Of a DNA stretch of 64,000 bases, positions 38,104 to 54,960 are shown piece by piece; position 1 is the stretch's first letter; each line of letters begins with the position of its first letter. The stretch lies in assembly GCA_963823335.1 (NCBI GenBank), contig CAWGLD010000004.1, forward strand, positions 494,817 to 558,816, written 5' to 3'. This stretch comes from an uncultured delta proteobacterium (GTDB lineage: Bacteria; Desulfobacterota; Desulfobacteria; Desulfobacterales; B30-G6). A program made the translations under genes and the position numbers. Under the pieces are notes generated by a model. The model did not search any database and was not told where the DNA came from. It was given only the letters and a program-made list of their open reading frames with translations.

Positions 38104-38362
38104 GAATTGCAACTCCTCTTCATAAATCCATTCATTACCGAATAGATCATATGCGGCTCTGCCGCTTTTAGCGCAAGCAAACCATCCATAGTTATTTATA
38201 CGGCTTTTAATCTTGCAACAGTTTTATTTATCAGAGACATGAAATCAGGTCAAGCATCCTGATTTCGTTCATAGTTCCGAAAATTTTTATTTATATTGAA
38301 ATCTGACAGCTATCACCATAAAATAAAGGGTATGAAACTTTACAAGGAGACGTTTCCCGCCA

Positions 38363-39094: not shown

Positions 39095-39326
39095 AATAAA
39101 AACAATCACGAAAACACGAAAACTACAAAAATAAAACGGCAAAGCCGCGCCAGAAAAGAAATTTGAGAATCAAATTTCTTTTTTCTCAAATTTCTTTTTG
39201 ACAACCCGATTCAGGGTTGATATGTGGTTTGTTTGTTTTATGGTTTTAATCTGCGTTTAGCGATTCTTATTGGCAAACATAAAAGCGACCTAGTCGCGCC
39301 ATATGAAAGCGCGCAGCGATTTCATT

Positions 39327-39403
39327 GGGCCGTTAGCTCAACCAGGCAGAGCACCTGACTCTTAATCAGTAGGTTGAAGGTTCGATTCCTTCACGGCCCA
39401 CCA
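39327..39403 (+). tRNA. tRNA-Lys (CTT)
   Basis: GGGCCGT/ACGGCCC acceptor stem, TAGCTCA D arm, CTGA-CTCTTAA-TCAG anticodon arm, GGTTCGATTCC, encoded CCA. Confidence 0.96.
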
Positions 39404-39419
39404 ATTTTTAAAATTATTT

Positions 39420-39488
39420 TAAGCACTTAACGGAATATCGTTAAGTGCTATTTTGTTTTATATCCCTCGGTGCTATGCCGGTGCTATG
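39420..39488. promoter_or_regulatory. Hairpin plus tandem arm-like direct repeats after tRNA-Lys
   Basis: AGCACTTAACG..CGTTAAGTGCT hairpin and CGGTGCTATG twice at 39468-39488. Confidence 0.5.
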
Positions 39489-39568
39489 AGAGCTTTTGAT
39501 TTAGGAACTTTAAATGATAGAGTTAGCAATCAGTTTCGCTAACTTTTCCCCTTACTTTTCACTCCCAG

Positions 39569-39769
39569 TAAGCCATGCCTCCATGCTCATTTGAACTGTA
39601 GTGTATTGATAAAGACCAACATAAAAACCCGAAATCCGTCTCTGGAAATCCGGTTTTCAGATTTTTGGTGCCGTTTCTGATATCTAAAAACACAACTTTT
39701 CAAAAATATGGCTATCTATATGTCAAAGGATGTTATCACAGGTTTGCCTAACCTGTTGATGAGTTGGAG
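39569..39769. repeat. 200-bp dispersed repeat, copy 2
   Basis: Matches 1655-1854 with scattered substitutions and a 1-nt indel. Confidence 0.9.
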
Positions 39770-39794
39770 AATGGATTGTTCGGGGAGAATTTAT

Positions 39795-39993
39795 GACTTG
39801 AAGTCCCTTGTAGATAGCTTTGCGGAGGCTCCGCGAGCTATACCCTTCGGGCTCGCTCGCCTCCCCAAAATCTATCTACAGGAAAGGTACCAGTTAGTGC
39901 AGGTTTCAAAGGCCTTGAAAAATCAGCTCCTTTCATTTCATTTTATTGCTGATTTAGAGCTTATCACATTGTCAAATTTTAGGGGATCACCAT
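39795..39993 (+). mobile_element. Possible IS3-like right-end remnant
   Basis: TGTAGATAG..CTATCTACA hairpin and terminal TGTCAAATTTTAGGGGATCACCA. Similarity to the lipoprotein paralog starts right after it. Confidence 0.35.
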
Positions 39994-40032
39994 CCTTTTC
40001 TGCCTGTTTTGGTCCCCCAACGGGGGGCTAAC

Positions 40033-40123
40033 AATGAGCCTCCCCGGGGCAAGCTCCGGGGTATCAATCTCTCATTTTAGATTTTTTTCGCGGCAAGCCG
40101 CGGGGAATTAAACCCTAATCGAT
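40033..40123. repeat. REP-like double hairpin inserted into a lipoprotein gene
   Basis: CCCCGGGGCAAGCTCCGGGG and CGCGGCAAGCCGCG. Absent from the paralog at 51981-52496. Confidence 0.8.
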
Positions 40124-40570
40124 ATTAACTGTTTTGTCATCAATCATTTTCACCGTTGCCCGCTCCTTCCAGTTTTTCAGCGCATACCAGATACCGATTT
40201 GCCTACCGTCAGGGGTGACTATCTCTGAGCCATTTTGAGTCAGGGGAAAACCATTTCTCGAAGGGTTTAGAATATCAAACCATCTTTTCAGTAAAGTTTG
40301 TGTAAGATCAACGGGTTTCCAAAATTTTGATTCGAGATGATACTCATTTCGAATCCCGATCACGGTTCTCGGTAAAGCATCCGGTCCATTGTAATAGTAA
40401 GTGTGATTCGGCGGTATCTGGTAAGTTTCAAATGCCGTTTTTACCTTATCACTATGAACGAGCTTTCCATAGTTTGCATTTCCAGCACAGCTTGCCACAA
40501 AAACAACAGCAACCGATAATAAAAATAATCTTGTCGTACAATTTGCCCGTAATCGATTTAACATATTCAT
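40115..40570 (-). pseudogene. Lipoprotein, C-terminally truncated by a REP-like insertion
   Basis: Lipobox VASC. Paralog of 51981-52496. Displaced C-terminus VSPPLGDQNRQKR lies at about 39994-40032. Confidence 0.75.
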
Positions 40571-40664
40571 ATCTATCTCCCTCTGTAAAATCCGTGCTTA
40601 AATAGTTTTTATGGGATATCTTGACAGTGTCCTATTTTGTTTTGCCCCACCGGTGATATATGGA

Positions 40665-42444
40665 GAGACTGTCGAAAAAGGCATTTCGGCGAACCGGTTC
40701 ATCGCTCGACATTCTCGATTTCAATAGATCCATCTTTTTTACTTCAAGATGCTATCATATTTTACAGATTCAGCCTACTTATTTGGTCTGTACAGCCTAT
40801 GCATGCCCGTAATTAGCCACTTTCTCTATATTGTGTACCATGCAGTACAGCAACCACTGAATATTTACCTTTATCTTTCCCCTTAAGTTAAGCCTGTCCA
40901 TTCGTTTTTGGATGTGGATGTTTCCAAATACAGGTTCAACGATGGCAATTCTTCGCGGATAGATTTTACGACCTTTTTCAGATTCAATCTTCTTGATCAT
41001 TTCATGGGATATATTCTTGCCAGACGCATCCACATAGAATGTAAAATGTCGTTGTTTAGCATCTTCATACCTAAGACACTTAGCCCTGAGTCGACAGGAC
41101 CTACAATCTATCTCCCGAGAAATATATCTTTTTAAAAGTTTGCCCCTATGTAAACCAGGTTTCCCATTTCTCTTAAGCCGCTTACCATTTGGGCAAACAT
41201 AGTGGTCCTGCTTGCGGTCATGCTTAAAATCTGCAAATGTAAACTTTTTAGAGTTTGACTGATTGTTTATCCGACTTGAGAACCTCTCATCTCGATTACG
41301 GAATTTGTTGTCTGGAATATAGGCATCTAATTTTTCATCACTGCATTTATTAATATTCGTTACGCTGTGATAACTTGCATCGGCTGTTAATATCTTATCT
41401 TCGAAATAGTCCTCTGGCTTGCCGATGCTTTGAAGTTATTCTTTGGCACCATCAATCACAGGAGGCAGATTTTCATGATCAAGCCCTTTCCCTATTGCCT
41501 CGCCATTAACAATTACCTGGTGCTTGGAATCGACTAACGCCTGACAGTTATATCCCTGAACAGTTCCGTGTGAGGTATGCATTTTAACAGAATCGTTGTC
41601 AGTTACATTGCTGTGAAGTTCTTTTCCATAGGCACCAATTATTTTGTCGTTTTCTGAAAACCATTGCTCAATCTTTTCAGCCTGCCGCTTAAGTCTCTCA
41701 ATTTGTTTGTCACGATTTGCAGCCATCTGAGTCTTGGCCCTATCGTCTGATTGGTCTTTTTCAAGATGATCTCGAACGAACGACTTAATCTTATGTTCAA
41801 GCTTTTCTTTCTTTTTCTTCAAATCATCTATTTTCCCACTACATTCTTGGGATGCATTGGACGATAGCTTGCAGCCATCAATGGCAAAGAAGGTTCCGCC
41901 TAAAAGATTCTCTTGCTCGCATACTAAAAGAATATCGCTGAACAGAGGTTGAATTTGATCTTCCATAGAAGAAACGAATGAAGCAATGGTGCTGTGATCA
42001 GGACGTTGGTTGCATGACATCGCCATAAAAGTCACATTCTCACAACATGCTCGTTCGATTTGGCGTGATGATATCAACCCACGTGAATAAGCAAGCAAGA
42101 CAACTTTCAGTAGTATCTTAGGATTATAGGCACTGCGGCCGGTATCGTCGTTTTGATACCTCGTATCAAATACGGACATATCCATCCGCCGTTCCACAAG
42201 GGTGTGGATGGCGAACTCTAACGTCCCTGGCATCAATTGTTTTTGGAGGGAAACAGGTATCAATAAACTTTGAGAGTAGTCGTAGTGCTTATACTTTGCC
42301 ATGCCTAATTCCTGTATGTTTGGCCATTGTCATTTGCTCATTTACCTAAACAATGACTAGCATAACGGTAGGATATGTCAACGGTTTATAGAGATAATTA
42401 TACATCTTTTAAGGTTAGATAGGAGGATCTTTTTCGACAGTCTC
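40665..42444 (-). mobile_element. IS1182-family insertion sequence
   Basis: Perfect 16-bp TIR GAGACTGTCGAAAAAG / CTTTTTCGACAGTCTC with GGA on both flanks. Confidence 0.92.
40797..42302 (-). pseudogene. IS1182 transposase with one in-frame TAA at 41436-41438
   Basis: GRSAYNP, SSRQIE, PDHSTI, AIDG, GYN, then in the same frame ADASY, YVCPNGK, VEPVFGNI, HNI. Confidence 0.9.
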
Positions 42445-42535
42445 GGAGACAATCACCGGTTGAGACCGAGTTCATATATCATCAGTATCACAGTCTTATT
42501 AGTTGGGATAGGGCAACAGTAAAGGAAGATGGGCT

Positions 42536-42883
42536 TCAAGCAATCTTAACATTCTCTGCCCCTTTAAACAGTTGAATAATTTCCCTTACATAGGCGCATT
42601 CACATTCGGCCCGACACTGTCTTAATTCCTTCTTGTTCAAACAGTATTCTGGGCACTCATCTGTCCCAGTTTTTGGCTCCGAAAAAATTGGTCCGTCATA
42701 AAGATCGACAAAAAGATCGGCGGATAAGGTGATAGTATTCTTACAACTGTGATTGAAGTATAATAGGCCAGCTTCCAGATTTTTAAAATTCACTTGATAA
42801 CCGACAATCATTATATCCTGGTCGGCAATAAAATCTCGGCGGGTTGACCATTTATGCCCGCAAACTTTACACTGTTTAAACAT
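42536..42883 (-). CDS. Cys-rich hypothetical (putative metal-binding) protein
   Basis: MFKQCKVCG..W..R..F, FNHSC, CPEYC..C...CEC. Start taken at ATG 42883. Confidence 0.7.
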   Translation of the reverse strand: MFKQCKVCGHKWSTRRDFIADQDIMIVGYQVNFKNLEAGLLYFNHSCKNTITLSADLFVDLYDGPIFSEPKTGTDECPEYCLNKKELRQCRAECECAYVREIIQLFKGAENVKIA

Positions 42884-42940
42884 GAAGGTGCTTTCGTAAT
42901 TTTTAATATGTCGTCTGAAAACCAAGTATCAGGACGGTGT

Positions 42941-43122
42941 TGATGAATGGAGACAAGTCCAACTATCCGATAATTGAAAAAAATGCAAGATACCATCTGG
43001 CTATGCCCACGGTACCACGGAGGGGTCTATAGATGCAAGATTTGGCCTGTTGTGATAATTTTCGCACACCGGTAAAATTTTAGGGGTCTGATATCTACCA
43101 TTTTGTTGGAGGTACCGGCAAT
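42941..43122. repeat. ~180-bp inter-cassette repeat, full copy B
   Basis: Conserved blocks AATGGAGA, GATACCAT.TGG, ATGCAAGATTTGGCC, TTGTGAT..TTTTCGCACACCGGT, TGATA, TTTTGT.GGAG. Confidence 0.92.
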
Positions 43123-43141
43123 CAAAGAAACCAGTCCAATA

Positions 43142-43672
43142 TTACTTGTTCAATAGTGACCACATTGAATTTGTCAGTTCGTGCTTCAGATGATCACCAG
43201 TACGGTAGTGATCATTTTTTGCCCAATCATCGCTTACTTGATGCATCCAAGTAATGGGTTTCGGAGGGACATCTTCCCATTCAATGGTTGGTGGATAAAA
43301 GAGATAGATATCCCAAGCGACATGACCATCCCAACCAACACTTGTCGCAATCTCCTTTCCCGATATTTGTTTAGGATCATAGAAATGTTGAATACGATCA
43401 TCATTTAACAACTTGATGGTCGGTAATGCAGCTTCTAATGAATCTTCAGGCAGCATATTAATCCAAACAATGGACCCGTTGATATCGGTCTTAGGAAAAC
43501 TCTCAAACACATTCTTATGCACCGCCCGGGCACCTTGGTCACGTCACAATGGGCAAGTGGGGGATAGAAGGGCAAGGAATCGTATTTTTCCCTTTCCTCT
43601 GTTGAAATGGTCTTTTAGATGGTCCAGCGAGCCCAACAGCTTGATATTGTCCTTTGTTTCGCCGGTTTTCAT
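43142..43672 (-). CDS. Thioredoxin-like selenoprotein, 176 aa, CxxU motif (UGA at 43544-43546)
   Basis: AGGAG RBS, ATG 43672, MKTGETKDNIKLLGSLDHLKDHFNRGKGKIRFLALLSPTCPL-TGA-RDQGARAVHKNV continuing in frame into ORF 43142-43522. Confidence 0.85.
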
Positions 43673-43704
43673 TTTCGAATCTCCTAACTAAGAGTCTGAA
43701 GTCG

Positions 43705-44202
43705 CTAAGCCATTTTGAAAGATTTTTTCCCGGTCAATTTATCCACCACCTGGCGGACATCAGCCAAACATCAGCGGCCTTTGGGATTCTTATTGGCACA
43801 ATCGCATCCATCGGCTTTTTTCTCGGCTGCAATTTCAGCCATTATCGTAGATCGGCCATTTTTCTGATAATCCTGTTCAATGTCCCTCCTGGTATGCTTA
43901 AAACAGTAGCAGACCAAATCATCCAAGTTAAATTCACTGGTTTTTAACGTATTTGATTTAGCGGTATCCCGCACCAGCTGGCCGTTTAATGATGCAACGT
44001 ATCCTGCCTTTATCAGGGCATGCTTCATATCTTCGAATGAAAGCAATTCCGGATCATAGGAAACAACAGCTTTTTTCTCGGCATTACTGGCGGTAGCCTC
44101 CTTTACCCCCTCAAGCCCTTCCAGGGCCTTTACCACTTTGGGCTCTCACCCCATTCAGGTCATACCTTGGATAGACAGTTCGATCTTCAGATCTTTAGAC
44201 AT
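43705..44202 (-). CDS. Triple-selenocysteine HMA (CopZ-like) + 2Fe-2S-binding fusion protein, 165 aa
   Basis: MSKDLKIELSIQGMT-TGA-MG-TGA-EPKVVKALEGLEGV..VCYCF..CDCANKNPKGR-TGA-CLADVRQVV..MA-TAG. UGAs at 44155-44157, 44146-44148 and 43771-43773. Confidence 0.85.
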
Positions 44203-44380
44203 ACATTTCCCACCTTTGTTTATTCGTCACAACAAATTTCCAGATCAATAGTTTCACTGCGTTCAAGATTGTCAAACGATTCCAGTGCTTTCATTGCCCA
44301 TTGTTCCCCGGGGCAACCAGATTCGGTGATTGCCACATTGAGAAATTCTACAAGCTCTTTAGCAAGAACCTGTTTTCTTA

Positions 44381-44680
44381 CTATTTTGAATGCATAATTT
44401 CTCTGACTGCATTCGAAAGTGAATCCATGTCCGGTATGTTGTCAAAGGCTATGCGTTCATTGATAATAATCGATGGAACTGAAGGCATTCGCTTACAGAT
44501 TGTACCGAGTTCAGCGTGCCTCATCACACCCTCTTTAGAACTGACATCGACCACCGTCCACTGGAGAACGCCCTTCTCAAATTCGGGGGCAATTTCTTCC
44601 AGTATTGCAAGCGCCAAATCGCACAACATGCACCCTTTCTTTTTTGCAACAATTTCTACAATTACGTTTTGCAAATCCAT
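44381..44680 (-). CDS. Small thioredoxin/glutaredoxin-like protein (CMLC)
   Basis: CxxC after the first strand and cis-Pro motif SVPSIIIN..FDNIPD. Confidence 0.75.
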   Translation of the reverse strand: MDLQNVIVEIVAKKKGCMLCDLALAILEEIAPEFEKGVLQWTVVDVSSKEGVMRHAELGTICKRMPSVPSIIINERIAFDNIPDMDSLSNAVREIMHSK

Positions 44681-44757
44681 GTACCAGAATCTCTATTACA
44701 CATTTTTCAATTTTAAAATTAATCCTTTTTTCCAATGGCCCTATGTAAGGTCGAGTG

Positions 44758-44784
44758 GTGATAAATGGAGAGTAGTCACGGTTT
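44758..44784. repeat. Left-end fragment of the inter-cassette repeat (copy C)
   Basis: GTGATAAATGGAGA, identical to the start of copy F (49201). Confidence 0.55.
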
Positions 44785-45107
44785 AACAGACCCGTAAAAA
44801 CCTGTGATTACATCACATCCCGCTCTAATAATTGCCACGATCGCCATTACAGATATCATTTTTCTTACAAATTTGCAAAAAAGGGAAAATCGTCGAAATG
44901 ATCCTCCCGCATGATAACATAGAAATACAACGTGAGTGACGATTGCGTGTAGTGGTGATGTGTTATGGTATCTGCAATTATCGTAAAATACCGATGAGTT
45001 GGAGATAGTACGAGTTTACGACCTTCAAAGCGATCTGTGATATAAAAAGTGGCAAAACTAAGGTAGCTCTGCCACTTTAATATATCCAACCTGTACAACT
45101 TAGATTA

Positions 45108-45899
45108 TTAGTTCAGCGCTTCAATAAAGCAGCCACCGCCACCGCCACCGCCACCGCCACCACCATCATCGTTACTAATAGTGGCGTTAAAAGTACCAGT
45201 GTCACCGGTTACAGAATACCACCAGCCTGACATGCTCACACCATTTATTTTACCCCAAAACGCAAATTCCTCGTCATTCGGACCATCTCCATCGTCATGA
45301 AAATAGCCGTCAGGATGCAGCCAACCCTGTTTAAAGGCATAATCAGCACCATCAATTGTCACCGATCCGGTGATGTCGCCCAAGATTTCTCCATTAGATT
45401 TAATTGAGATGACTATTTTACCAGAGTTATCTCCAATATAGGTGCCCTTATAAGTTCCTACATATTGGTCAATAAAGTCGTCTGAAGTGATTTTACTGCC
45501 AATTAAATTTCCTGAATCAGCTGAATCTGTATCGGACCATGTTCCCGTAACCGACCCATTAGATGAATCGACTTCAATGGCGAATTGGTAGCCCCAAAGA
45601 TACGAGGGTCCGACAGAATAATTTCCGACCGTGCCTGCTTCACCTTCATAGTTAATCGAACTTGATGGGCCGATATCACCCTGGCTGATATCTGTCGAAT
45701 AAAACCAAAATTTTGCCCCTAAATTTATATCGAGTGCAAGATACCAAACACCATTATCATCGCCCGAATATGTGCCTTTATATAGGCCGTTATAATCTTC
45801 TTGGGCGCACCATGAATTTGGAGCCAATAAAAACAATAGAAGGGATAGGTATAGTAGGATGTGAGCTATTCTGCTTGGACTGTTGGTCACCATCAGCAT
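45108..45899 (-). CDS. Secreted acidic beta-rich protein with poly-Gly-CFI C-terminal sorting-like signal
   Basis: Signal peptide, repeated G.YKGTY.GD, ends GGGGGGGGGGCFIEALN. Terminator-like hairpin at about 45045-45080. Confidence 0.75.
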   Translation of the reverse strand: MLMVTNSPSRIAHILLYLSLLLFLLAPNSWCAQEDYNGLYKGTYSGDDNGVWYLALDINLGAKFWFYSTDISQGDIGPSSSINYEGEAGTVGNYSVGPSYLWGYQFAIEVDSSNGSVTGTWSDTDSADSGNLIGSKITSDDFIDQYVGTYKGTYIGDNSGKIVISIKSNGEILGDITGSVTIDGADYAFKQGWLHPDGYFHDDGDGPNDEEFAFWGKINGVSMSGWWYSVTGDTGTFNATISNDDGGGGGGGGGGGCFIEALN

Positions 45900-45991
45900 T
45901 TTTCCTTTCAATTTGAGATTGATTTGATAACGCGGGGGGAAAGATAAATAGGTGAAAGTTATTAACATATTTGGAGATTGAATGCAATTGT

Positions 45992-46162
45992 AATGGAGAG
46001 ATATCCAGTTATCAAGCTCAACCAAATTATTACCGATACCATCTGGTCATCACCAAGGTATTACGGCAGGGCCTATCAATGCAAGATTTGGCCCATTGCG
46101 ATTATTTTCGCACACCGGTGATATTTTAGGGGTCTGATAACCTTGTTTTTGTAGGAGGTATC
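45992..46162. repeat. Inter-cassette repeat, full copy D
   Basis: Colinear with copies B and E. Confidence 0.92.
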
Positions 46163-46219
46163 TTGATAACGTTTAAACATCTACGGCTTGACCGTAGCAT
46201 GTTTCTTGCTTGAATTATA

Positions 46220-46927
46220 TCAGATTGTTTTTTTTCTGATCAGGTAGATACCGTCACAGAAGGTGAGGAAGAGTTTCTCCACCCTGTTGTCAGCGTTTAC
46301 CTCTTCGTTAAAGAGGGCTATGGCTTTACTGGACTCATCTTTGGGCTCAAAGATCCGACCGTACCACAGGGCATTGTCAACAACAATGAGGCCGCCTTTC
46401 CGCAGAATCCTCATTGATTCGTGATAGTAAGCCAGGTAGCTGGTTTTATCAGCATCAATGAAGACAAGATCGGTTGCTTCGGACGGCAGGGATTTTAGAA
46501 TATCAATGGCTTCTCCCCGCTGCAGATTGATCTTGTGGCCCTGCGGACTCCTGTCAAAAAAACCTTGAGCGATGTCGGCATTGGCGGAATCATGTTCGAT
46601 TGTCAGCACCTTGCCGTCTGGCGGAATTGATTCGGCCATAGCCAGGGCCGAGTAACCGGTGAATGTGCCGATATCGATCACATTCCTGAATCCCGATAGA
46701 ACGATAATCAACTGCAGAAAACGTCCTTCAATCCGGCCGGTAAGCCAGTTGGGAGACTCGGTTTTGTTGAGAGTGTAGTTCTCAATCTCTTCAAGAAGCG
46801 GAGACAAGGGTGAGGTGTGGTCTGCGGCATATTGTTCGGCTTCCCACGCCACCATGTCCATAAAGGAATGGATGGCCTTACCGGTTTCTTGCTGTCCGTC
46901 TGCGTTTTCAGAACTATTTTTTTCCAT
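46220..46927 (-). CDS. SAM-dependent O-methyltransferase (caffeoyl-CoA OMT-like)
   Basis: IDIGTFTGYSAL, LVFIDADK, GGLIVVDNALW. Confidence 0.9.
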   Translation of the reverse strand: MEKNSSENADGQQETGKAIHSFMDMVAWEAEQYAADHTSPLSPLLEEIENYTLNKTESPNWLTGRIEGRFLQLIIVLSGFRNVIDIGTFTGYSALAMAESIPPDGKVLTIEHDSANADIAQGFFDRSPQGHKINLQRGEAIDILKSLPSEATDLVFIDADKTSYLAYYHESMRILRKGGLIVVDNALWYGRIFEPKDESSKAIALFNEEVNADNRVEKLFLTFCDGIYLIRKKTI

Positions 46928-46952
46928 TTTTCTCCTACCGATACCGGATACA

Positions 46953-47133
46953 GATAAATGGAGAGAAGTCCAGTTATCAGGTTTGATGTAAATATTGCCG
47001 ATACCATATGGTCATGCCCAGGGTACCACGGAAGAGTCTATGGATGCAAGATTTGGCCTGTTGTGATACTTTTCGCACACCGGTAATATTTTGGGCGCTT
47101 GATATCTTTGTTTTTGTTGGAGCTGTCTGCAAT
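46953..47133. repeat. Inter-cassette repeat, full copy E
   Basis: Colinear with copies B and D. Confidence 0.92.
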
Positions 47134-47172
47134 TTGGTGGGGTGTTATTTTCTGGTTTTCAATAGATTTTTG

Positions 47173-48855
47173 CTAAAGCAGGCCTCCTACAAAACAACCA
47201 TAGCCATCACCACCACCGGCATCCGACGTAGAATCATATTCAGGGGATATATTAGCCTTGACACCTGGACCGCCTATATCAACAATAATTCCATTTTCAG
47301 CTAAATCGTCATCTCCCCTTTTTCCATCAACAAAATACAGCGTGATGTTATTTTTATTAATTTTAGCTCCGGTCTGGCCGTTAAAAATGAATTCATACCA
47401 GTGATCAAATGGATCATCCGGGGTCAGGCCATACTTAGAATACGTGTTAAATGTAATCTCAGAGGGAAAATAAAAAGTTACGGATGTAGCGCCCCCGATG
47501 CGAATCCCTGCCACGGTAAATGAAAAAAATCCATATGAGAAATCTACGCCGGACGGATAATTGGTGTCTGGTGGTTCAATAACCGCTTTACAATTTTTAA
47601 TTGACGTGCCGGGAGGCGTTTCGAGCACCACGTAATCAGTCGCATTGTCAATCGCTAAAGAACTCACATTGCTTTGAAGACTGTCAAGTATACCATCATT
47701 ATTTCCATCACCATCGATTGGACCAGCATTTTCCTCTTTATTGCTAACACCATCATTATCATAATCTGCTAAGAATACAGCTGTAATGGTCACGTCAGAA
47801 TTGATAGATATTTTCTCAGGATTATCAGAAGAATCAAGCCCACCGCTCCATTCACTAAACAGCCACCCTGAATTGGCCGTTGCTGTCATCGTAATTAATG
47901 AACCCTTAGAGTAATAATCTTTTTCAGGATCAATCTCGACATTACCTGAACCAACGATATTTATGGTTATGCTCAACAACTTATTCACTGTATTTATTGT
48001 ATAGTTCTGATTTGATTGATTGTTAGTTACGTTACTGTAGCTCCGAGATGCCGGGGAAAAAATGTAACCCTCCTTTGTTGGGGTAACCGTACCACTCCAG
48101 CCATAAGTTACATTACGGCTGTAGTACCCTGAACTGTTTGTAGTATCTGTACCTCCGCCATTACCAAACGTTACCGTGACGCCACTGAATCCGTTGCCTG
48201 ACGAAGTGCGGACATAACCGGAAATGGTTCTATCCGGCTGAGCTTGTGTCCCGGTGTAGTTCTGGTTTGATTGATCGGCGTTTACGTTACTGTAGCTCCG
48301 AGATGCCGGGGAAAAAATGTAACCCTCCTTTGTTGGGGTTACCGTACCGCTCCAGCCATAAGCTATCTCATGACTGTAATACCCAGAGCTATTTGTAGTG
48401 TCTGTACCTCCTCCGTTACTGAACGTAAGCGTAACTTCGTTAATCCCTCCGCCTGAAGATGTACGAACATAACCGGAAATGGTATTGGCCTGATGAACCT
48501 GGGTCCCAATATAGTCTTGGTTTGATAGATTAGAAGTCACGTTAACGTAACTCAGTGATGCTGGGTTAAAGCTGAAACCATCTTTGGTAGGTATACTTTT
48601 ACCACTCCAGCTATTTGGGATACCTATGCTGTAATAACCAGATTCGTTCGTGGTTGTGGATCTGACATTATCGAATGTAACATTGACTCCCTCAATCCCA
48701 CTGCCTGATGATGTGCGGACATACCCGGATATCTCTTTTGCGAAACCATCAGCTACTCCAATGAATAATGAAATTATAAGCAGAATAAACAAGTGTAATA
48801 AGCATACGATAGGAGATATATTGCTGTAAGCAGTTTTTAATTGTTCTGTTTTCAT
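47173..48855 (-). CDS. Surface protein: three ~85-aa ISGYVRTSSG repeats, a B-repeat-like domain, a choice-of-anchor U-like domain and a GCF C-terminus
   Basis: Repeats visible in DNA and protein. DGNNDGILDSLQSNV, KYG.TPD...HWYEF, FVDGKRGDDDL..NG.IVD.GGP. Ends GGGDGYGCFVGGLL. Confidence 0.8.
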   Translation of the reverse strand: MKTEQLKTAYSNISPIVCLLHLFILLIISLFIGVADGFAKEISGYVRTSSGSGIEGVNVTFDNVRSTTTNESGYYSIGIPNSWSGKSIPTKDGFSFNPASLSYVNVTSNLSNQDYIGTQVHQANTISGYVRTSSGGGINEVTLTFSNGGGTDTTNSSGYYSHEIAYGWSGTVTPTKEGYIFSPASRSYSNVNADQSNQNYTGTQAQPDRTISGYVRTSSGNGFSGVTVTFGNGGGTDTTNSSGYYSRNVTYGWSGTVTPTKEGYIFSPASRSYSNVTNNQSNQNYTINTVNKLLSITINIVGSGNVEIDPEKDYYSKGSLITMTATANSGWLFSEWSGGLDSSDNPEKISINSDVTITAVFLADYDNDGVSNKEENAGPIDGDGNNDGILDSLQSNVSSLAIDNATDYVVLETPPGTSIKNCKAVIEPPDTNYPSGVDFSYGFFSFTVAGIRIGGATSVTFYFPSEITFNTYSKYGLTPDDPFDHWYEFIFNGQTGAKINKNNITLYFVDGKRGDDDLAENGIIVDIGGPGVKANISPEYDSTSDAGGGDGYGCFVGGLL

Positions 48856-49200
48856 TATCTTTGCATTTCTTGAGACTATAATCTGTTTAGCAGGGCGATG
48901 ACGTCCTTTTTAATAAATATAAATTCCTAAAATGGGATCCTTGCCTTAAGAACAGAAGCACTATTGATTTATAATAAGAAGGAGTAGCGGTGAAATCAAA
49001 TCAATCTGAGCTGGCTAGGATAACCTTCTTAACCATGAAATGATCCTTTTACGAAGGTTTGATATTAGGATGTGAAAAAAACTTCTAAAGAATACTAAAA
49101 AGCGGTGTTGATGTCAATAAATTTATATAAATCAACATATTGTATAATATCTTGCCACTTTATGGAAAACACTTTCTCAAAGACATTTTTCCGTGAACCT

Positions 49201-49291
49201 GTGATAAATGGAGACAAGTCCAGTTATCAAGATCAACAGCAATATTACCGATACGATATGGTAATGCCCACGTTACCACGTAGGGGCTTAT
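49201..49291. repeat. Inter-cassette repeat, left part (F)
   Basis: GTGATAAATGGAGACAAGTCCAGTTATCAAG ... CCACGTAGGGGCTTAT. Confidence 0.85.
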
Positions 49292-49499
49292 CCTATAAAG
49301 TCCCCTTTTTTAGAAGACGAAACTGCAGCATTTTTATAAATTATTGGTTTCCAAGTCCTATAAATCAGTGAGTTCATAGTTGTCCTTGACAAAGATTTCA
49401 TTCCCCTTTACTTCATTTGAGAGGATTCATCTTTATTTGCAGTGTCATTTCATAATAACCTCTTTTATTAATTACAACCAATTGAAAGGAGGCAGCAAA

Positions 49500-50099
49500 A
49501 TGAAGGCAAAAGAAACAGCGGTAGTTTTGATAGAATTTCAAAATGATTTTTGCAAAGAAGGCGGTAAACTACATGACGGCTTAAAGGGGGAGCTTGCACG
49601 GCAGAATACAATTCCAAACGCCGTGAAACTGGCAGAAGGAGCTCGTAAAAAAGGAGCTACGATTATCCATTCACCATTTATATTTAATGAAAAATATTTC
49701 GAAGATCATCAAATGCAAGGAATTGTTAAAGCTGTGGCTGATGGAAATGCCTTTCGCGAAGGAACCTGGGGAGCTGAGATTATCGATGAATTAAAACCGA
49801 AGGAAGGGGACAAAATTGTCGGTGGTAAGTGCACCTTGTGTGGCTTTAATAATACAAATTTGGACGAACTATTAAAGGGAGACAATATCAAGAATGTGGT
49901 TATTGGTGGTTTTCTGACCAATTTTTGTGTTGAGAGCACTGCCCGCACAGCTTATGACAAGGGTTATGGAGTTACAATAATGAAAGATGCGACTGCTGCC
50001 ACCTCGACAGAAGAACAAAATCACTCCGAAGAAAAAATTTTCCCTTCGCTGGGGCAGACTCTCTCCGTAGATCAATTTATTGACCAATTGGAGGAATAA
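49500..50099 (+). CDS. Isochorismatase-family cysteine hydrolase
   Basis: VLIEFQNDF, GTWGAEII, GFLTNFCVESTAR.AYD.GY, GGAGG RBS. Confidence 0.9.
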   Translation: MKAKETAVVLIEFQNDFCKEGGKLHDGLKGELARQNTIPNAVKLAEGARKKGATIIHSPFIFNEKYFEDHQMQGIVKAVADGNAFREGTWGAEIIDELKPKEGDKIVGGKCTLCGFNNTNLDELLKGDNIKNVVIGGFLTNFCVESTARTAYDKGYGVTIMKDATAATSTEEQNHSEEKIFPSLGQTLSVDQFIDQLEE

Positions 50100-50774
50100 T
50101 CATCATCAAAATCGCGAGGTTGAAATAATAAAAGACCGGAGTAATTACTTTTGTCGATGCTCCGGTTTTTTACATATTCAGATCTGGCTTTTCAAAATAT
50201 TGGCATTCGCCGTCAATGTGGGAACAAACATCAAAAGAAGATGACGAAAAGATGCCAGATTCTTGGCAATAGGGATTAGCTGGAGAGGTCATTGCTTCAA
50301 CTGTTTTAGCGCATGTACATGAGTATAATTTATTCAATCCCCCTTTACAGTCTTTGTTCGTTCGTCTTCTTGTAAGGTTATAAATCGCCCTCCACAGTCC
50401 TGACAAATACGCAAATAGCATTTTTCTTCTTCATCACCAATTCTGCAAACGATATTAAATTCCACTTGAAAACTTTTCCGTTCACCGCAATGAGGGCAAT
50501 ATTTTGTCGGCATTTAGCTCACCTTTTCTATTGTTTGTATTCCTCGTATAATAGTCAAAAGGACAGACCCTGCCTTGTTAATAGACATAAGGTTTATCAG
50601 ACTGAAAGTCATAATTCACAGCGGATATACATCCACTTTTATTCTATATATTCAAGTCGGAGAAAATGTACTTGGTGCATTGTACTTTAGTGCAATTCAG
50701 CTGTTTGGTAACATATCAATGAGGAATTAGGTTACTTGTTGAATAAATATGAAAGTCCATCAATTCACAGCGGA

Positions 50775-50842
50775 TATGTCCACGGTATCACGCAGGGGCC
50801 TATGAATGCAAGATTTGGTCTGTTGTGATTATTTTTGCACAT
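50775..50842. repeat. Inter-cassette repeat, middle part (G)
   Basis: ATGTCCACGGTATCACGCAGGGGCCTATGAATGCAAGATTTGG..TTGTGATTATTTTTGCACA. Confidence 0.85.
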
Positions 50843-51231
50843 GGCAAAAGTTCAATTCATATTATTCGTCGACTTGACATTTACCACAATATGGCAATGT
50901 TTTTAAGATAGTTGCATGGACGATCTTTAGTGTGCTGAAGTATGGATGCAAGCAGTCGAACCAGGTGGGCAAACTTCGGTTCATTATCATGACTGTGAGA
51001 CGGTAATTGACAGCATAAAGGGGCCCGGGCAGCTTTCAATTGAAGAGAAAATCATCGTATTTGGTCCGGACCATACGCTTCATATACCCCTGTTGTCCAT
51101 CAACTCGTCAATAGTGGAAGTTTAGATATTTTCTTGATTACTTTGTTTTCATCAATACCGGCTCAAGTTTTTACATCTGATGGCAAGATGCAGATCTTGG
51201 CCCGGCAATCTTAGGTTCCAGAGGTACAACT

Positions 51232-51615
51232 ATGAGTAATTTAGGATTTATTCGGGTAAAGGGATTAGCATTGGCTGTAACTGATTTGAATAGGGCCAAC
51301 CGTTTTTATGGAGAAACCCTGGCGCTTCCGCCGGACACCATCCGTAATATGGAATCCGCATATCTGATTGGTGACGCGATTGTGATGCTGAAAACACAAG
51401 AGGAATGTCATGCAAAACCTACGGAAGCATTGAACCCTCGCATCACCGTGGAAACCCGCGATGCCTTTGCCACCGAACAGGCCTTGAAAGAGCTGGGGGT
51501 CACTGTCTCAGACCCCGTCACTTTCTACGATGGCACTCCGATTGGAGCTTTTCTCGACAGCGAGGGAAACAAGATATGGTTTTGTTCCGTATCGGACAAG
51601 AGCGGCACAGATTAA
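51232..51615 (+). CDS. VOC / glyoxalase family protein
   Basis: LAVTDLNRANRFYGETL and FLDSEGNKI. Confidence 0.82.
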   Translation: MSNLGFIRVKGLALAVTDLNRANRFYGETLALPPDTIRNMESAYLIGDAIVMLKTQEECHAKPTEALNPRITVETRDAFATEQALKELGVTVSDPVTFYDGTPIGAFLDSEGNKIWFCSVSDKSGTD

Positions 51616-51906
51616 TTTTTTTTGTGCCTCGATTATGGCGCAACTATCCGATAAAATTCGGCGTTTAGTCGGAAATTCTCAACATAATATGGCTTCACTA
51701 TATTTACATTGATGGAGTCGCATTAAAGCGAACCTGGCCCGATCAGGTCAGTAAAGTATCAGTTTTCCCGCAATCAGTGCAGATATGATCTGAAGATATG
51801 CAATCTATCGCACCGTTAAATCAGGTGTCAAACTGTAGGATATATAAACGCTGCTTTGTGACAATAAAAAAGGGGTAAATCCATGGCTCGGATTCACCCT
51901 TTTAAT

Positions 51907-51975
51907 TTGTGATTATTTTCGCACATCGACAATTTTTCAGGTGCCTGATATCTAACGTTTTGTTGGAGATTGTCG
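51907..51975. repeat. Inter-cassette repeat, right part (H)
   Basis: TTGTGATTATTTTCGCACA..TGATATC..TTTTGTTGGAG. Confidence 0.82.
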
Positions 51976-51980
51976 GGTTT

Positions 51981-52496
51981 CTAACGCTTCGAGCGGTTCT
52001 CCTTCCTTTTCTGTTCGGTAGCGTCCTCCAACGGGGGGCTAACATTTACTGTTTTGTCATCAATCATTTTCACCGTTGCCCGGTCCTTCCAGTTTCTCAC
52101 CGCATACCAGACACCTATTTGGCTACCGTCAGGGGTGAGTAGTGCTGCACCGTTTTTATTCAGATAATAGCCATCCCTCGAGCGGCCTGCCTTTTCAAAC
52201 CATCTTTTCAGTTGGGTCTTCGTAAGATCAACCGGTTTCCAGAATTTTGATTCAAGGCGATACTCATTTCGAACCCCGATTATAGCTCGCGGAAAAGCAT
52301 CCGGTCCACTGTAATAGTAAGTGTGATTCGGCGGCAACTGGTAAGTTTCAAATGCCTTTTTAACATTATCATTATAAACAAACTTTCCGTAGTTTCCAGT
52401 CCCGGCACAGCTCGTCATAAAAAAAACGGCAACCAATAAAAAAAACAAAAGTAGTCTTGTGGAACAAGCTACCCGTAATCGATTTAACGTATTCAT
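51981..52496 (-). CDS. Lipoprotein (intact paralog of 40115-40570)
   Basis: Lipobox MTSC, YYYSGPDAFPRAIIG, FWKPVDLT, PDGSQIGVWY. Confidence 0.82.
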   Translation of the reverse strand: MNTLNRLRVACSTRLLLFFLLVAVFFMTSCAGTGNYGKFVYNDNVKKAFETYQLPPNHTYYYSGPDAFPRAIIGVRNEYRLESKFWKPVDLTKTQLKRWFEKAGRSRDGYYLNKNGAALLTPDGSQIGVWYAVRNWKDRATVKMIDDKTVNVSPPLEDATEQKRKENRSKR

Positions 52497-53196
52497 ATCA
52501 ATCTCCCTTTGTAAAATCCGAGTTTAAATAGTTTTTATGGGATATCTTGGCAGTGCCCTATTTTATTTTGCCCCGCCGGTGATACAGGGAAACATTACCA
52601 CCCTGATAAAACTAAAGATCATCATTGCCGGGTATAAGGTCAAGAATATTATGCAGTCCGCTATTGTCATTTTGCCTTCCGATTTTACATCTTGAAACCC
52701 CACAAAATATGATTACGACCCTCTAATTGCCAGGGAGATAATCGAGGAAAGAATCCGCAAAAAATTAGAGTGCGAATGCCAGATCCCTGGCAATCAATCT
52801 GCTGGTGGCGGAACGATCTGATCAATAATATTGGAGTCGATATTAGTGTATCTGGCCGCCGTGATTTTTGATGTTTTCTGATACGTCGTTTTGGGGGTCT
52901 GTCTGACGCTATTCAGAATGAATTACGCACTTGGGGTATAAAAACGATATCCTAAAAAAAATGCGTAGTGCTCGATCTTGAATAGGTTGGAGATCAACTG
53001 TCTGTACCGACTATTTCGTCTGGAAGGTCGACAATGATTGCAACCGATTCACCCATCGCATAAATGGTTCCATCACTAGCGCTTAGCGCTGACATTGCGA
53101 ATAATTTACGCCCATCTCGTCTGAGGTAGCGAGATGTGATTCTGTAATCGCTCTCAATTCCCACAGGAGGCACTCGAAAGATACGAACCCCATCTT

Positions 53197-54960
53197 TTAT
53201 GTATTTTGTTGCAATCTGGCGCAGGCAAAAGCAGGCGCAGGCAGGTAACCTTTTGAAACAGAGTGCGTGGCGCTTTTGGATGCTGCATTTTCAAGGGCAA
53301 GCGCAGCCGGATTTTTTTCACAAAATGTTTTGGGTTCATATGTCCACCCATTTCCTAACCGCTTTTCTTCCCTTTTCATGGTAAGGTGAAAATAGCGTCC
53401 GATCAGGGGGGCTATTATCCGTGGTAACAACCCGAACTCAAGATATATATCGCGAAGAAGGGATGCCAGTTTGTCGGAAAGTCGCCGATCATTTCGGTAA
53501 TACTTATTCATTGCCCACACGGCACCCGCATAAGTGCTTCGAAGGGAATCGACTTCTCGGGCAAAGCGATTCCGGATACGCAGGTCCGGATGACGTTTAT
53601 ACCGTTGCCACCCTGTCAGGAGCGTCCTTGTTAAACGAGCAAGGCTTGGACCGTTTACCTCGAAATCCCTGTTAAAGGCTTTTAAAAGAAATTTTTCTTC
53701 ACGGCCCTGGCGGATATGGGGATGACGAAAATTGAAGCGGTATTGCCCATGGGCATCCGCCACCGGAAAGGTCGTTTCCGGAAGAAGTGTACCGTCTTTG
53801 CGGTGCTGATCAAAAAGGGGTGTTCCCGGAATCGGGGTGTAAAGCATGAACTGGTGGAAGTCAGAATCATGATTGATGGCATCCTCGATCACTTGGTCAA
53901 GGTTTTCGGAGGTGTGGTTTTCCATTCCGATGATGGAAGATCCAAGGACGCGTATTCCGTGAGATTGTAGGTCTTTAACCAGTGCATATGTATCAACGCC
54001 CCGTAGCTTGGGATACTGGCTTTTTTTACCCTCCAGGCCCATCCATATCCATGAGACTCCCAGTCCCACGATCTGTTCAATGGTATACGACCGCAAAACC
54101 CGAGCCGAACTGAAAACAGACAAAGACCAACTCTTTTGATTTGATGTCATTAATTCCAGCAATCTAAGGGCTCTTCTCCGATGCAACAGAAAATTTTCGT
54201 CCAGGATAAAAAATGAGGTGACACCCAATTTAGCCTCAATATCGCTCATGATCGAAAAAAGTTCATCCCCGGTTTCATAAAAGTTGATAAAGTTTCCTTT
54301 GCCACCGAACAGAGAGGAGGTAGAGCAAAAATTGCAGCCCATCGGGCATCCGACTGAAGGGATTAATATGGCGGCTGTATTGCCGTTTTTATGCTCGCGG
54401 TGAAGGGGTATTCCCAAAATACGCGTCCCATGGGCCGAATAGGTAAGGGGATGCCGCACCGGTTTGTTTTCGTTCTGTCCGAGAAATCTTTGAAACCATC
54501 TGATCCCTTCCCCCTTAACGATGTGGTCTGCGTCGATTATTTCCGATAGTTTTTCTTTGTTGGTTACATGACCGCCGACGATGATGGTTGCTCCCGGTAG
54601 GTGTTCCCGAACCAGTTCACACATTTTTTTTACTTTTCCGATATTGGGAATGATCGCGCTTATGCCTACAATATCATATCGATTATCATGAATTTCCTCG
54701 ACAAACCGATCGAGGGAAGGAAAATCGAGCAATGTACAGGGTGCATCAAGATTGGATTGAATCATCATCAGGCCAAAACTGCGGTGAAACATGCGCAGCG
54801 AAAAAATGCCTTGCACGCGGGTAACCTGGTTCTGATAGAGTTCCATGGGATTGATTTCCCGGCTGCCATAATCATCATTTTGTGCATACGGCCCAAAAAC
54901 ACTTGAGAGTAAAATACTGGCTCGGGTCCCGCGCGGATGCACAGGTGCATGTGATGTCAT
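53197..54960 (-). CDS. B12-binding domain radical SAM protein
   Basis: YDIVGIS..IVGGH cobalamin-binding region, GCPMGCNFC (CxxxCxxC), YTPIPGTPL. Confidence 0.88.
   Translation of the reverse strand: MTSHAPVHPRGTRASILLSSVFGPYAQNDDYGSREINPMELYQNQVTRVQGIFSLRMFHRSFGLMMIQSNLDAPCTLLDFPSLDRFVEEIHDNRYDIVGISAIIPNIGKVKKMCELVREHLPGATIIVGGHVTNKEKLSEIIDADHIVKGEGIRWFQRFLGQNENKPVRHPLTYSAHGTRILGIPLHREHKNGNTAAILIPSVGCPMGCNFCSTSSLFGGKGNFINFYETGDELFSIMSDIEAKLGVTSFFILDENFLLHRRRALRLLELMTSNQKSWSLSVFSSARVLRSYTIEQIVGLGVSWIWMGLEGKKSQYPKLRGVDTYALVKDLQSHGIRVLGSSIIGMENHTSENLDQVIEDAINHDSDFHQFMLYTPIPGTPLFDQHRKDGTLLPETTFPVADAHGQYRFNFRHPHIRQGREEKFLLKAFNRDFEVNGPSLARLTRTLLTGWQRYKRHPDLRIRNRFAREVDSLRSTYAGAVWAMNKYYRNDRRLSDKLASLLRDIYLEFGLLPRIIAPLIGRYFHLTMKREEKRLGNGWTYEPKTFCEKNPAALALENAASKSATHSVSKGYLPAPAFACARLQQNT

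Follow-up and report, generated by a model that had tools for sequence, protein, structure and literature searches.

Here we describe a family of ~175-nt intergenic repeats that punctuate co-oriented arrays of mutually unrelated genes in the genome of an uncultured delta proteobacterium, together with a tyrosine recombinase gene that lies inside one copy of the same repeat. The starting point was a stretch of 64,000 nt from contig CAWGLD010000004.1 of assembly GCA_963823335.1 (the window), in which one such array adjoins the 3′ side of a tRNA-Lys gene; coordinates are positions within the window unless a contig is named, and G000 denotes the window's own genome. We observed the repeat family and its distribution, the conservation pattern of the repeat, the positions of gene-block borders, the embedded recombinase, the sharp ends of a 1.06-kb unit that contains it, and a run of nine adenines (A9) that splits its reading frame. 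On balance we lean, by a modest degree, towards reading the repeats as miniatures of a mobile element that encodes the tyrosine recombinase, with the core sites of both serving as cassette junctions, in a system that is integron-like in its working but is not an integron.

Repeat arrays in the G000 genome

Repeat searches of the window recovered three full and three partial co-oriented copies of the repeat, plus two bare end motifs. The full copies, each 172 nt long (42946-43117, 45992-46163 and 46957-47128), are 72-78% identical to one another; the partial copies lie at 49203-49291, 50772-50852 and 51907-51968, and a 20-nt end motif recurs at 44758, 42940, 46951 and 49201. A profile seeded by the three full copies and iterated once returned six matches in the array and none in the remainder of the window. 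Read on the minus strand, which is the gene strand, a stop codon is followed by a repeat and then, tens of bases further on, by a start codon. The genes separated in this way are mutually unrelated as judged by Pfam, and comprise an O-methyltransferase, an HMA-domain protein, a surface protein, an isochorismatase and a glyoxalase-like protein, alongside several open reading frames (ORFs) without a family.

These searches confirmed the copy positions given in a preliminary description of this DNA, as well as its claim that stop codons fall about 5-60 bp from the right end of the neighboring repeat, a distance that we measured as 6-58 nt for the minus-strand ORFs of the array. Other details had to be revised. 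What had been described as a single split copy is really three partial copies that overlap one another by ~30 nt and are separated by two opposite-strand genes, and the supposed left-end fragments at about 44758 and about 40653 are bare 3′ core motifs, the one at about 40653 being cut by an insertion sequence (IS). The statement that no further copies exist elsewhere in the window holds, with no additional profile matches found there, yet the same profile returned 88 matches in 19 loci of G000 (11 contigs, 4.37 Mb, 93.9% complete), with E-values down to 1e-63, far above chance. The single platform envisaged downstream of tRNA-Lys is one of these 19 loci.

The largest arrays hold 20 (contig 7), 14 (contig 1) and 11 (contig 4) copies, and the window array holds 6. 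Copies within any one array all point one way, and they are clustered rather than scattered in the manner of an ordinary miniature inverted-repeat transposable element (MITE), the 19 loci with 5-kb margins making up 8.3% of the genome. Genes and repeats alternate regularly along the 36-kb array of contig 7, whose cargo includes URO-D, a GDSL lipase, a pentapeptide protein, a Ni-SOD, an acyltransferase, beta-lactamase-fold proteins, hydrolases and many ORFs without a family. Co-orientation with the repeat was assessed at 58 near-full copies and holds for the upstream ORF at 53 of them and for the downstream ORF at 51, with a median gap of 75 nt from the upstream stop codon to the repeat and of 213 nt from the repeat to the next start codon, taken from the longest ORF. 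G+C content is 0.39-0.45 in 18 of the 19 loci, versus 0.488 for the genome, and a tRNA gene lies within 6 kb at 10 of the 19; tRNA scans of the window region indicated that the repeat itself is not a tRNA fragment.

BLAST searches with one copy as query detected the repeat in 12 of 41 related genomes, G000 counted. By family, it was present in 10 of 14 genomes of G000's own family (G000 excluded), in the one genome of a sister family, and in none of 25 genomes from other families of the order. When the most conserved block of the repeat was scanned as an exact pattern against one genome per prokaryote species, 38 stretches were returned, whose titles name uncultured delta-proteobacterial, Desulfobacterales or Thermodesulfobacteriota metagenome-assembled genomes; the lone exception is a 2.6-kb contig labelled Zixiibacteriota. 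Searches of plasmids, phages and viral contigs gave zero matches. Sampled words of the array are present at 16-58% in 20 public runs from 6 studies.

Repeat anatomy and sequence constraint

The repeat carries a CTCCAAC word at its 5′ end, a nearly invariant internal block of 23 nt with TGTG-N10-CACA symmetry, a further conserved block (ATCTTGCAT), and at its 3′ end an imperfect palindrome (…GATAAC TGGA / CTTNTC / TCCA TGTATC…) whose arms of 13 and 12 nt flank a spacer of 6 nt (13-6-12). Core sites of tyrosine recombinases are built as arm-spacer-arm, and the layout of this 3′ core is like theirs. A TCTCC word is directly repeated at the two ends of the repeat, once at the 5′ junction and once in the 3′ core; no inverted repeat links the two ends, whose motifs are direct repeats.

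Per-column information computed from 51 distinct full copies of G000 correlates closely with that computed from 67 copies of other genomes (r=0.97), and the mean pairwise identity of repeats is 0.71 within G000 and 0.70 between genomes. Because identity inside G000 does not exceed identity between genomes, the copies are old, with no homogenization by gene conversion or concerted evolution. Comparison of the copies indicates that specific blocks of the repeat are preserved by selection as DNA.

Several other identities for the repeat were examined. Rfam searches at permissive E-values over 38000-54500 returned only the tRNA, no fold common to 53 aligned copies emerged on either strand (mean z about -1.2 for each, relative to simple shuffles), and copy 3, modelled as single-stranded DNA (ssDNA), did not fold better than shuffled versions of itself (z = 0.66 and -0.26), its one stable hairpin being the short palindrome at the 3′ end. 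An attC identity was rejected on these ssDNA folds and on the direct ends, which are not paired in the RYYYAAC...GTTRRRY manner. A small antisense protein gene, with its ATG in the core, was also rejected: the frame reaches at least 42 codons in only 50 of 111 copies, and its information of 1.26, 1.30 and 1.20 bits per codon position shows no periodicity. A scan of the three window copies for sigma-70 promoters and terminators found one promoter-like site (in copy 2) and zero terminator-like structures inside them, with scan totals at or under shuffle expectation. A sigma-54-like reading of the TTGCAT block was discarded because the GG is not conserved, and a CRP-like reading of TGTG-N10-CACA because its spacing is wrong for a CRP site.

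The lack of a fold, an Rfam match or codon periodicity argues that the repeat is not an attC site, an RNA gene or a small protein gene, and the promoter and terminator scan that it is not an evident promoter or terminator. The initial view that it is neither attC nor CRISPR nor an element with terminal inverted repeats is supported; the accompanying statement that it contains no long palindrome stands with the qualification that a short imperfect one, 13-6-12, forms its 3′ end.

A recombinase gene embedded in the repeat

A search of G000 for serine recombinases returned none, whereas tyrosine recombinases gave 11 matches. One of these, a 277-codon Xer-like gene at contig 1 163901-164738, lies inside an array, on the strand opposite to a repeat copy whose profile positions 99 and 145 flank it, and the same arrangement occurs in two further genomes, G001 and G015. 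Protein identity to the G000 recombinase is 97% in a congener and 82% in a genome of another family, with unchanged junctions. The gene encodes a PF00589 catalytic domain, and a SAM-like N-terminal core-binding domain is seen in its relatives; the best NCBIfam model is an archaeal XerA-type one (102 bits, short of the cut-off of 220), and the nearest solved structure is a XerC-like protein. Where the preliminary description had posited a recombinase acting in trans, G000 itself offers a likely candidate, encoded within a copy of the repeat on a contig other than that of the window.

A shortened twin of the recombinase gene resides in a contig 9 array. Beside it, at contig 9 36793-37158, is an ORF of AAKKP-type repeats, a low-complexity sequence like a histone H1 tail, with a GFFAA-repeat frame on the other strand.

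To follow the association over greater distances, a scan of metagenome contigs identified 244 stretches encoding relatives of the recombinase, the best 80 of which were examined for repeat halves within 200 nt of the gene, each count being limited to loci with room for the half concerned. Where protein identity is at least 80%, the 3′ half of the repeat stands upstream of the gene at 10 of 17 loci and the 5′ half downstream at 15 of 20. The corresponding counts are 22 of 29 and 5 of 28 at 66-79% identity, and 0 of 21 for both halves below 66%. Repeat halves therefore flank the gene from 98% down to 66% identity, which indicates that its position inside the repeat has been kept over long divergence. 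No comparable repeat family was found near the distant recombinase relatives of G007 (55-58%) and G018 (44%).

In pairwise comparisons of 11 complete units from different sources, ~1.05 kb is homologous, one limit lying no more than 6 nt from the 5′ CTCC (23 of 34 pairs) and the other no more than 16 nt from the core (42 of 43 pairs), with unrelated flanks on either side; the PF00589/SAM-like protein is the sole ORF within it. These comparisons argue that the recombinase gene and the repeat halves form a discrete mobile unit of ~1.06 kb and, because this unit is sharp-ended at the same two TCTCC motifs, that the repeats are its gene-less miniatures.

The start of the recombinase gene has a strong ribosome-binding site, an ATG and ~20-22 codons that resemble the N-terminus of its relatives, followed by a run of A. 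At 48 of 74 readable loci this run is 8 to 10 A long, nine in most cases, and a shift of one base separates the start from the long frame. Another 18 loci are in frame, several of them with one A fewer, 1 is out of phase without an A run, and no start was recognised at the remaining 7. The G000 copy has A9 and is out of frame, its initial ~22 codons being offset by one base from the 277 that follow. Since the split occurs in many separate assemblies, an error of one assembler is unlikely, although the sequencing platforms behind them are not visible. IS elements are described as using runs of nine A for transcriptional slippage that fuses two frames (PMC1088944). The A9 split is a candidate case of programmed transcriptional slippage or phase variation, and a heritable phase variation through replication slippage would fit it as well.

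A further integrase gene associated with an array, a 226-aa fragment at contig 1 1515953-1516722, was set aside because it has no relatives near other arrays. Its neighbors are an IS21 helper gene and tRNA-Glu, one on either side; it heads a three-copy array, and looks like the remnant of an unrelated tRNA-targeting island integrase.

Gene-block borders and array turnover

A 1.1-kb unit is duplicated at two places in the contig 7 array with ~99.6% identity. The identity begins at TCTCCATGTATC in the upstream repeat, the remainder of which is only ~65% alike, continues through the gene and the entire downstream repeat, and ends just past the second TCTCCATGTATC. A congener carries the O-methyltransferase cassette of the window at 99% identity and a tRNA-Lys flank at only 84%. 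The border of the cassette lies precisely at TC|TCCAT, where the spacer meets the right arm of the core; in the 20 kb examined around this lone cassette of the congener, the profile detects no repeat. A Ni-SOD cassette common to G000 and another genome likewise begins in the core, and the block shared by a duplicate in G007 terminates at the core.

We then pooled borders from comparisons of the G000 arrays with 38 + 23 loci of relatives. The 5′ borders that lie inside a repeat fall at profile positions 181-216, which correspond to the core, with two outliers at 244 and 248, and two of them could be resolved at TC|TCCAT or within 12 nt of it. Cores also occur without a repeat: TCTCCATNNATC motifs outside repeats number 27, of which 14 lie within arrays, compared to 1.8 expected by span. 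Of these array-located bare cores, 13 of 14 are co-oriented with the array, and 2 of 14 are the right-hand remains of cores cut by one and the same IS in the window and in contig 7.

Array content changes between relatives. In the tRNA-Lys neighborhood of congeners, three genomes have no repeat (12-20 kb examined), one has the O-methyltransferase cassette only, and one has a different array. At tRNA-Arg, where G000 carries its 20-copy array, four congeners show 0, 1 or 2 copies in the 8-40 kb examined. An 8-kb stretch of one relative contains cassettes that in G000 are spread over four different arrays, and the pooled set contained no repeats with both flanks conserved in another genome, apart from matches of a DNA stretch to itself. 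Such variable content between genomes argues that gene units assort independently. The cassette-like independence of the units, as originally proposed, is thereby upheld by the turnover among relatives and by the site-specific junction; cargo order and content are not invariant among relatives.

Proposed mechanism and alternative explanations

A four-step model could connect these observations. The recombinase would be made only after loss of one A from the A9 run, ~60 nt into the ORF, through transcriptional or replication slippage, so that its level stays low. It would then bind the palindromic core and exchange strands at the edge of the 6-nt spacer (TC|TCCAT), whereupon the element would leave as a circle and enter TCTCC-ATNNATC targets in a single orientation. 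Integration of the circle would give rise to two hybrid sites, the 5′ CTCCAAC junction and the 3′ core. Miniatures, which retain both junctions and the invariant inner blocks (probably accessory binding sites), would be mobilised in trans. Each insertion would leave a full core at its 3′ junction, causing co-oriented cores to accumulate, and recombination between two cores would release a gene and its downstream repeat as a circle that could enter any other core. Cassette shuffling of this kind would build the arrays, often beside tRNA genes, with bare cores as empty or stripped targets. Both the duplicate in contig 7 and the one in G007, whose shared block ends at the core, agree with release of this kind. 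Catalysis by the embedded enzyme, the circles, mobilisation in trans and gene capture are what we infer from sequence comparison, and capture of genes by the repeat/recombinase system is plausible on that footing. A further-reaching version, to which we attach only tentative belief, holds that this is a second, independently evolved gene-cassette system of sediment Desulfobacterales, with a recombinase encoded inside its own ~175-nt double-strand site and gated by A9, single-gene moves at the 13-6-12 core, and many integron-like arrays per genome.

Several observations weigh against the reading of the cores as cassette junctions worked by the embedded recombinase. The 3′ borders of shared blocks are varied, with four at profile positions 30-44 (the 5′ CTCC word), one at 64, one at 101 and two in the core (204 and 208). 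In the last two cases the entire repeat moves along with the gene; overall, the variation implies that the downstream repeat accompanies the gene only sometimes, and a second breakpoint at the 5′ CTCC, or a later exchange, needs to be assumed. The middle 26-45 nt of the miniatures have no counterpart in the ~1.06-kb unit, and several shortened copies stop at one point, directly past the invariant block, which the model leaves unexplained. Nor does it account for the opposite-strand genes within split repeats (isochorismatase, glyoxalase-like and the recombinase itself), of which the two in the window are flanked by ~30-nt duplications of repeat sequence. Some units are multi-gene or very large (1443 aa; a run of eight ORFs), unlike typical integron cassettes. 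Intact close recombinase genes turn up in only part of the repeat-bearing genomes; G004, G005 and G012 show fragments only, and four repeat-free genomes carry relatives of the recombinase. Finally, no recombination product appeared among the four public runs compared, all of them short assembly contigs, in which the joints, with 21-60 nt on the short side and 90% likeness, lead from copy to copy, are indistinguishable from other repeat copies and so give no verdict on excision.

As the main alternative, the same data could be explained without any movement of genes by the recombinase, if the element and its miniatures simply insert in a site- and orientation-specific manner behind genes of horizontally acquired islands, and the islands turn over through ordinary horizontal transfer, homologous recombination between repeats, and deletion. 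The unit and the miniatures are indeed sharply bounded at each junction, four of the 3′ borders found for shared blocks coincide with the 5′ edge of the next repeat as if repeats moved independently, some inter-repeat units are long operons, and the arrays have low G+C (18 of 19 loci) and often a nearby tRNA gene (10 of 19). We nevertheless consider a purely selfish element unlikely, while giving it serious weight, because the regular alternation over 36 kb and the co-orientation at 53 of 58 and 51 of 58 copies are hard to obtain by independent insertion. Moreover, two duplicated blocks contain the entire downstream repeat and end at the core, one of them also beginning at the upstream core; the O-methyltransferase block crossed species with its border exactly at the crossover point and with no recipient repeat detected; co-oriented bare cores are enriched about eight-fold in arrays; and a within-genome identity no higher than that between genomes speaks against frequent homologous exchange among repeats. 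A different enzyme acting in trans, either host XerC/XerD or an integrase that escaped assembly, could also work the cores, leaving the embedded recombinase to serve its own element or to be a passenger. G000 has two full-length Xer-type genes, the core shares the arm-spacer-arm layout of Xer-type sites, and both the genome completeness of 93.9% and the several repeat-rich genomes with only fragments of the embedded recombinase leave room for this idea, which is still rather improbable: the embedded gene keeps its position between the repeat halves from 98% to 66% protein identity, the other array-adjacent integrase tested, a 375-aa protein encoded 5 kb past the contig 7 array, is absent from the 10 own-family genomes searched, and a loose search for a dif-like site produced poor matches only, none of which resembles the core.

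Two explanations that dispense with a mobile repeat fare worse. We see very little chance that the repeat is a shared cis-regulatory module (a promoter/operator, terminator or leader RNA) copied along with co-regulated accessory genes, given that it has no Rfam match or consensus fold, folds no better than shuffles, contains a single sigma-70-like site in three copies, no internal terminator and no conserved sigma-54-like GG, and that such a module would leave both the embedding of the recombinase and the sharp mobile ends unaccounted for. What it does capture is that the repeat is always intergenic and co-oriented with genes, that its conservation pattern is equal across genera, and that the invariant 23-nt TGTG-N10-CACA block is reminiscent of a transcription-factor site; a regulatory side-role of the repeat may exist. 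A true integron, with attC sites and an integrase too divergent to be recognised, would share with these loci the co-oriented cassette array, the typical accessory cargo and the unit border at the 3′ end of the site, but is already nearly refuted. The integron integrase model TIGR02249 reaches at best 88.5 bits across the whole of G000, on Xer genes, relative to a cut-off of 265; as a candidate IntI, the embedded recombinase was rejected at 34.6 bits, aligned over positions 16-181 of 315 only; and the ends of the repeat are direct, not inverted, with the ssDNA folds at shuffle level (z = 0.66 and -0.26).

The window array in detail

The array adjoins the 3′ side of tRNA-Lys(CTT) at 39327-39403 on the plus strand (ARAGORN; Rfam tRNA, 69.3 bits), and the features that follow are on the minus strand unless stated otherwise. 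Its distal end appears to be marked at 39945-40033 by a decayed remnant of the 5′ part of a repeat and of the tail common to both lipoprotein-like cassettes (direct repeat of 39981-40033 and 51992-52044), a weak assignment recognised by eye and missed by the profile. Copy 1 of the lipoprotein-like ORF (40115-40570, 151 aa) is a paralogue of copy 2 (51981-52496, 171 aa), the first cassette of the array, which was identified by repeat and ORF searches; the repeats linking the two are 82% and 87% identical, and copy 1 matches no Pfam family. Compared to copy 2, the 3′ end of copy 1 has a 91-nt insertion rich in short G+C hairpins (40034-40123), which provides a stop codon and cuts the ORF from 171 to 151 aa.

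Upstream of copy 1 lies a bare core motif, TCTCCATATATC (minus strand; 40645-40666, with the motif match at contig 4 535471-535482), interrupted by an IS that sits in the core (40667-42445) and has terminal inverted repeats and a two-frame DDE transposase (Pfam DUF772 and DDE_Tnp_1_6). A copy of this IS with 97% identity is found in the core of a contig 7 repeat (231150-232953), so that in two arrays the IS occupies the identical point of the repeat core, in the identical orientation relative to the array. This DDE-type IS may target the repeat core; some IS families target attC sites. Group II introns and IS110-family elements also invade integron arrays, and the 20-copy array of contig 7 contains both a group II intron reverse transcriptase (233110-234432), encoded antisense to the cassettes, and an IS110-family transposase (217467-218663).

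Beyond the IS, a Cys-rich cargo ORF without a Pfam family (42536-42925) is followed by full repeat copy 1 (42941-43122; profile positions 15-236), by a three-ORF cargo unit that the ORF list and Pfam resolve into a 126-aa ORF, an HMA-domain protein and a glutaredoxin-like ORF (43142-44680), and by a second bare core motif, TCTCCATTTATC, which lacks a repeat body (44760-44771, corresponding to contig 4 539576-539587). Contig depth summed over four metagenome runs peaks at 44437-44903 as high as over full repeats, although only the bare core is present in this interval, and contigs of two runs leave the window at 44889-44892; a second abundant repeat may be located here. Then come a secreted, Gly-tailed cargo ORF without a Pfam family (45108-45902), full repeat copy 2 (45992-46170), the O-methyltransferase cassette (46220-46927; PF01596), whose 99% identical lone copy stands at the tRNA-Lys of a congener, and full repeat copy 3 (46953-47140), within whose core the shared O-methyltransferase block begins.

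The surface protein gene (47173-48855) encodes CarboxypepD_reg and InlB-type B-repeat domains and contains internal 255-nt (85-aa) repeats, three of which are arranged in tandem at 47999-48732 with 71-91% identity. It is followed by the three partial repeats, which, like full copies 2 and 3, were found by both the repeat and the profile searches: A (49203-49291) consists of the 3′ part and core (profile positions 119-236), B (50772-50852) of the middle part (81-151), overlapping A and C by ~30 nt each, and C (51907-51975) of the 5′ part, ending at the invariant block. On the plus strand between A and B is the isochorismatase gene (49500-50099; PF00857), and between B and C the glyoxalase-like gene (51232-51615; a weak match of 20 bits). 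A degenerate core-like motif at 52578-52592, a weak call based on comparison with 40645-40666, may mark the upstream edge of the array, beyond lipoprotein-like copy 2. Elsewhere in G000, large paralogous ORFs (590-1030 aa, ~70% nucleotide identity) occur as cargo directly after repeats in several arrays, at contig 1 103348-105123 and 148275-150086 and at contig 9 16016-19111, 38251-41343 and 41686-43458.

Implications and relation to known systems

Among machines that store single genes as cassettes and shuffle them, integrons are, to our knowledge, alone in being well understood. If the repeats described here work as we propose, cassette platforms arose more than once, this one differing from integrons in its site, its recombinase lineage and its logic. 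The system would account for much of the flexible genome of abundant, uncultured sediment relatives of sulfate reducers (~8% of G000 DNA), its repeat would serve as an annotation marker for such islands, and its recombinase and site would form a compact pair with natural in-frame and out-of-frame alleles. A full-text search of the literature, covering main texts, surfaced integrons, pdif modules, tycheposons and IS slippage, and returned no description that matches the element; in those main texts we found no described family in which an apparent mobile element has a tyrosine recombinase as its only gene and is accompanied by constrained miniatures. A match to a known IS end, named in the preliminary description as a finding that would refute it, is seen only in a loose sense: the repeat does match the ends of a mobile element, but one that we did not find described.

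Similarities to known systems are partial in each case. As in pairs of IS and MITE, a gene-bearing element coexists with many short copies that share its two ends, here ~88, some genomes hold many copies and sister lineages none, and the ORF of the enzyme is split at A9, comparable to the slippage described for IS elements (PMC1088944). Unlike in those pairs, the enzyme is a tyrosine recombinase rather than of the DDE, DEDD or HUH type, terminal inverted repeats are missing, and the copies are clustered, co-oriented with genes and under strong position-specific constraint. REPtrons offer a second parallel, in that one enzyme gene is bracketed by its cognate repeat while many gene-less copies are intergenic. 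Their RAYTs, however, are HUH single-tyrosine transposases that act on hairpins of ~35 nt, whereas here an Xer-like recombinase is paired with a 175-nt repeat that has no hairpin and a proposed role as a cassette junction. The TnpI recombinase of Tn4430, of ~280 aa and two domains, serves cointegrate resolution in a Tn3-family transposon equipped with a transposase of its own. It resembles the present system as a small two-domain tyrosine recombinase with a core of inverted motifs and one-sided, directly repeated accessory copies of the motif; in our reading of the alignment, arm-like words recur in direct orientation at three positions of the repeat, without the Tn3-family transposase or inverted ends that distinguish Tn4430.

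Among Xer-related systems, the pdif modules of Acinetobacter are likewise gene modules bounded by short Xer-type cores. They use host XerC/XerD and their sites alternate in orientation, whereas the sites described here are all direct, the enzyme is encoded by the element, and the core bears no likeness to the dif consensus. In the plasmid sites cer and psi, a core is similarly joined on one side to a long accessory sequence, which in those sites measures ~180 bp. Tycheposons of Prochlorococcus, according to their description, excise and integrate at tRNA genes (bioRxiv 10.1101/2020.12.28.424599), and thereby resemble our loci as cargo elements with tyrosine recombinases that remodel islands at tRNA genes, found here within 6 kb of 10 of 19 loci. 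They differ from the present arrays, which have a dedicated repeat, dozens of copies per array and units that are mostly single genes.

The closest likeness in overall architecture is to integrons. In both, accessory genes, mostly single and unrelated to one another, line up in one direction over long arrays, with a site repeat after each; both place the unit border at the site's 3′ end, vary in content among relatives and involve a tyrosine recombinase; both contain IS and group II introns inside their arrays; and both include many arrays without a nearby recombinase, as in clusters of attC sites lacking integrases (CALIN). The differences concern the machinery. Here IntI and the attC hairpin give way to an Xer-like enzyme and a core of the double-strand type, to which ~145 nt of conserved sequence are attached. 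Some of the units are large or hold several genes, and the recombinase is encoded within a repeat copy rather than next to attI, in a genome where the repeat, apparently mobile itself, is distributed over 19 loci.

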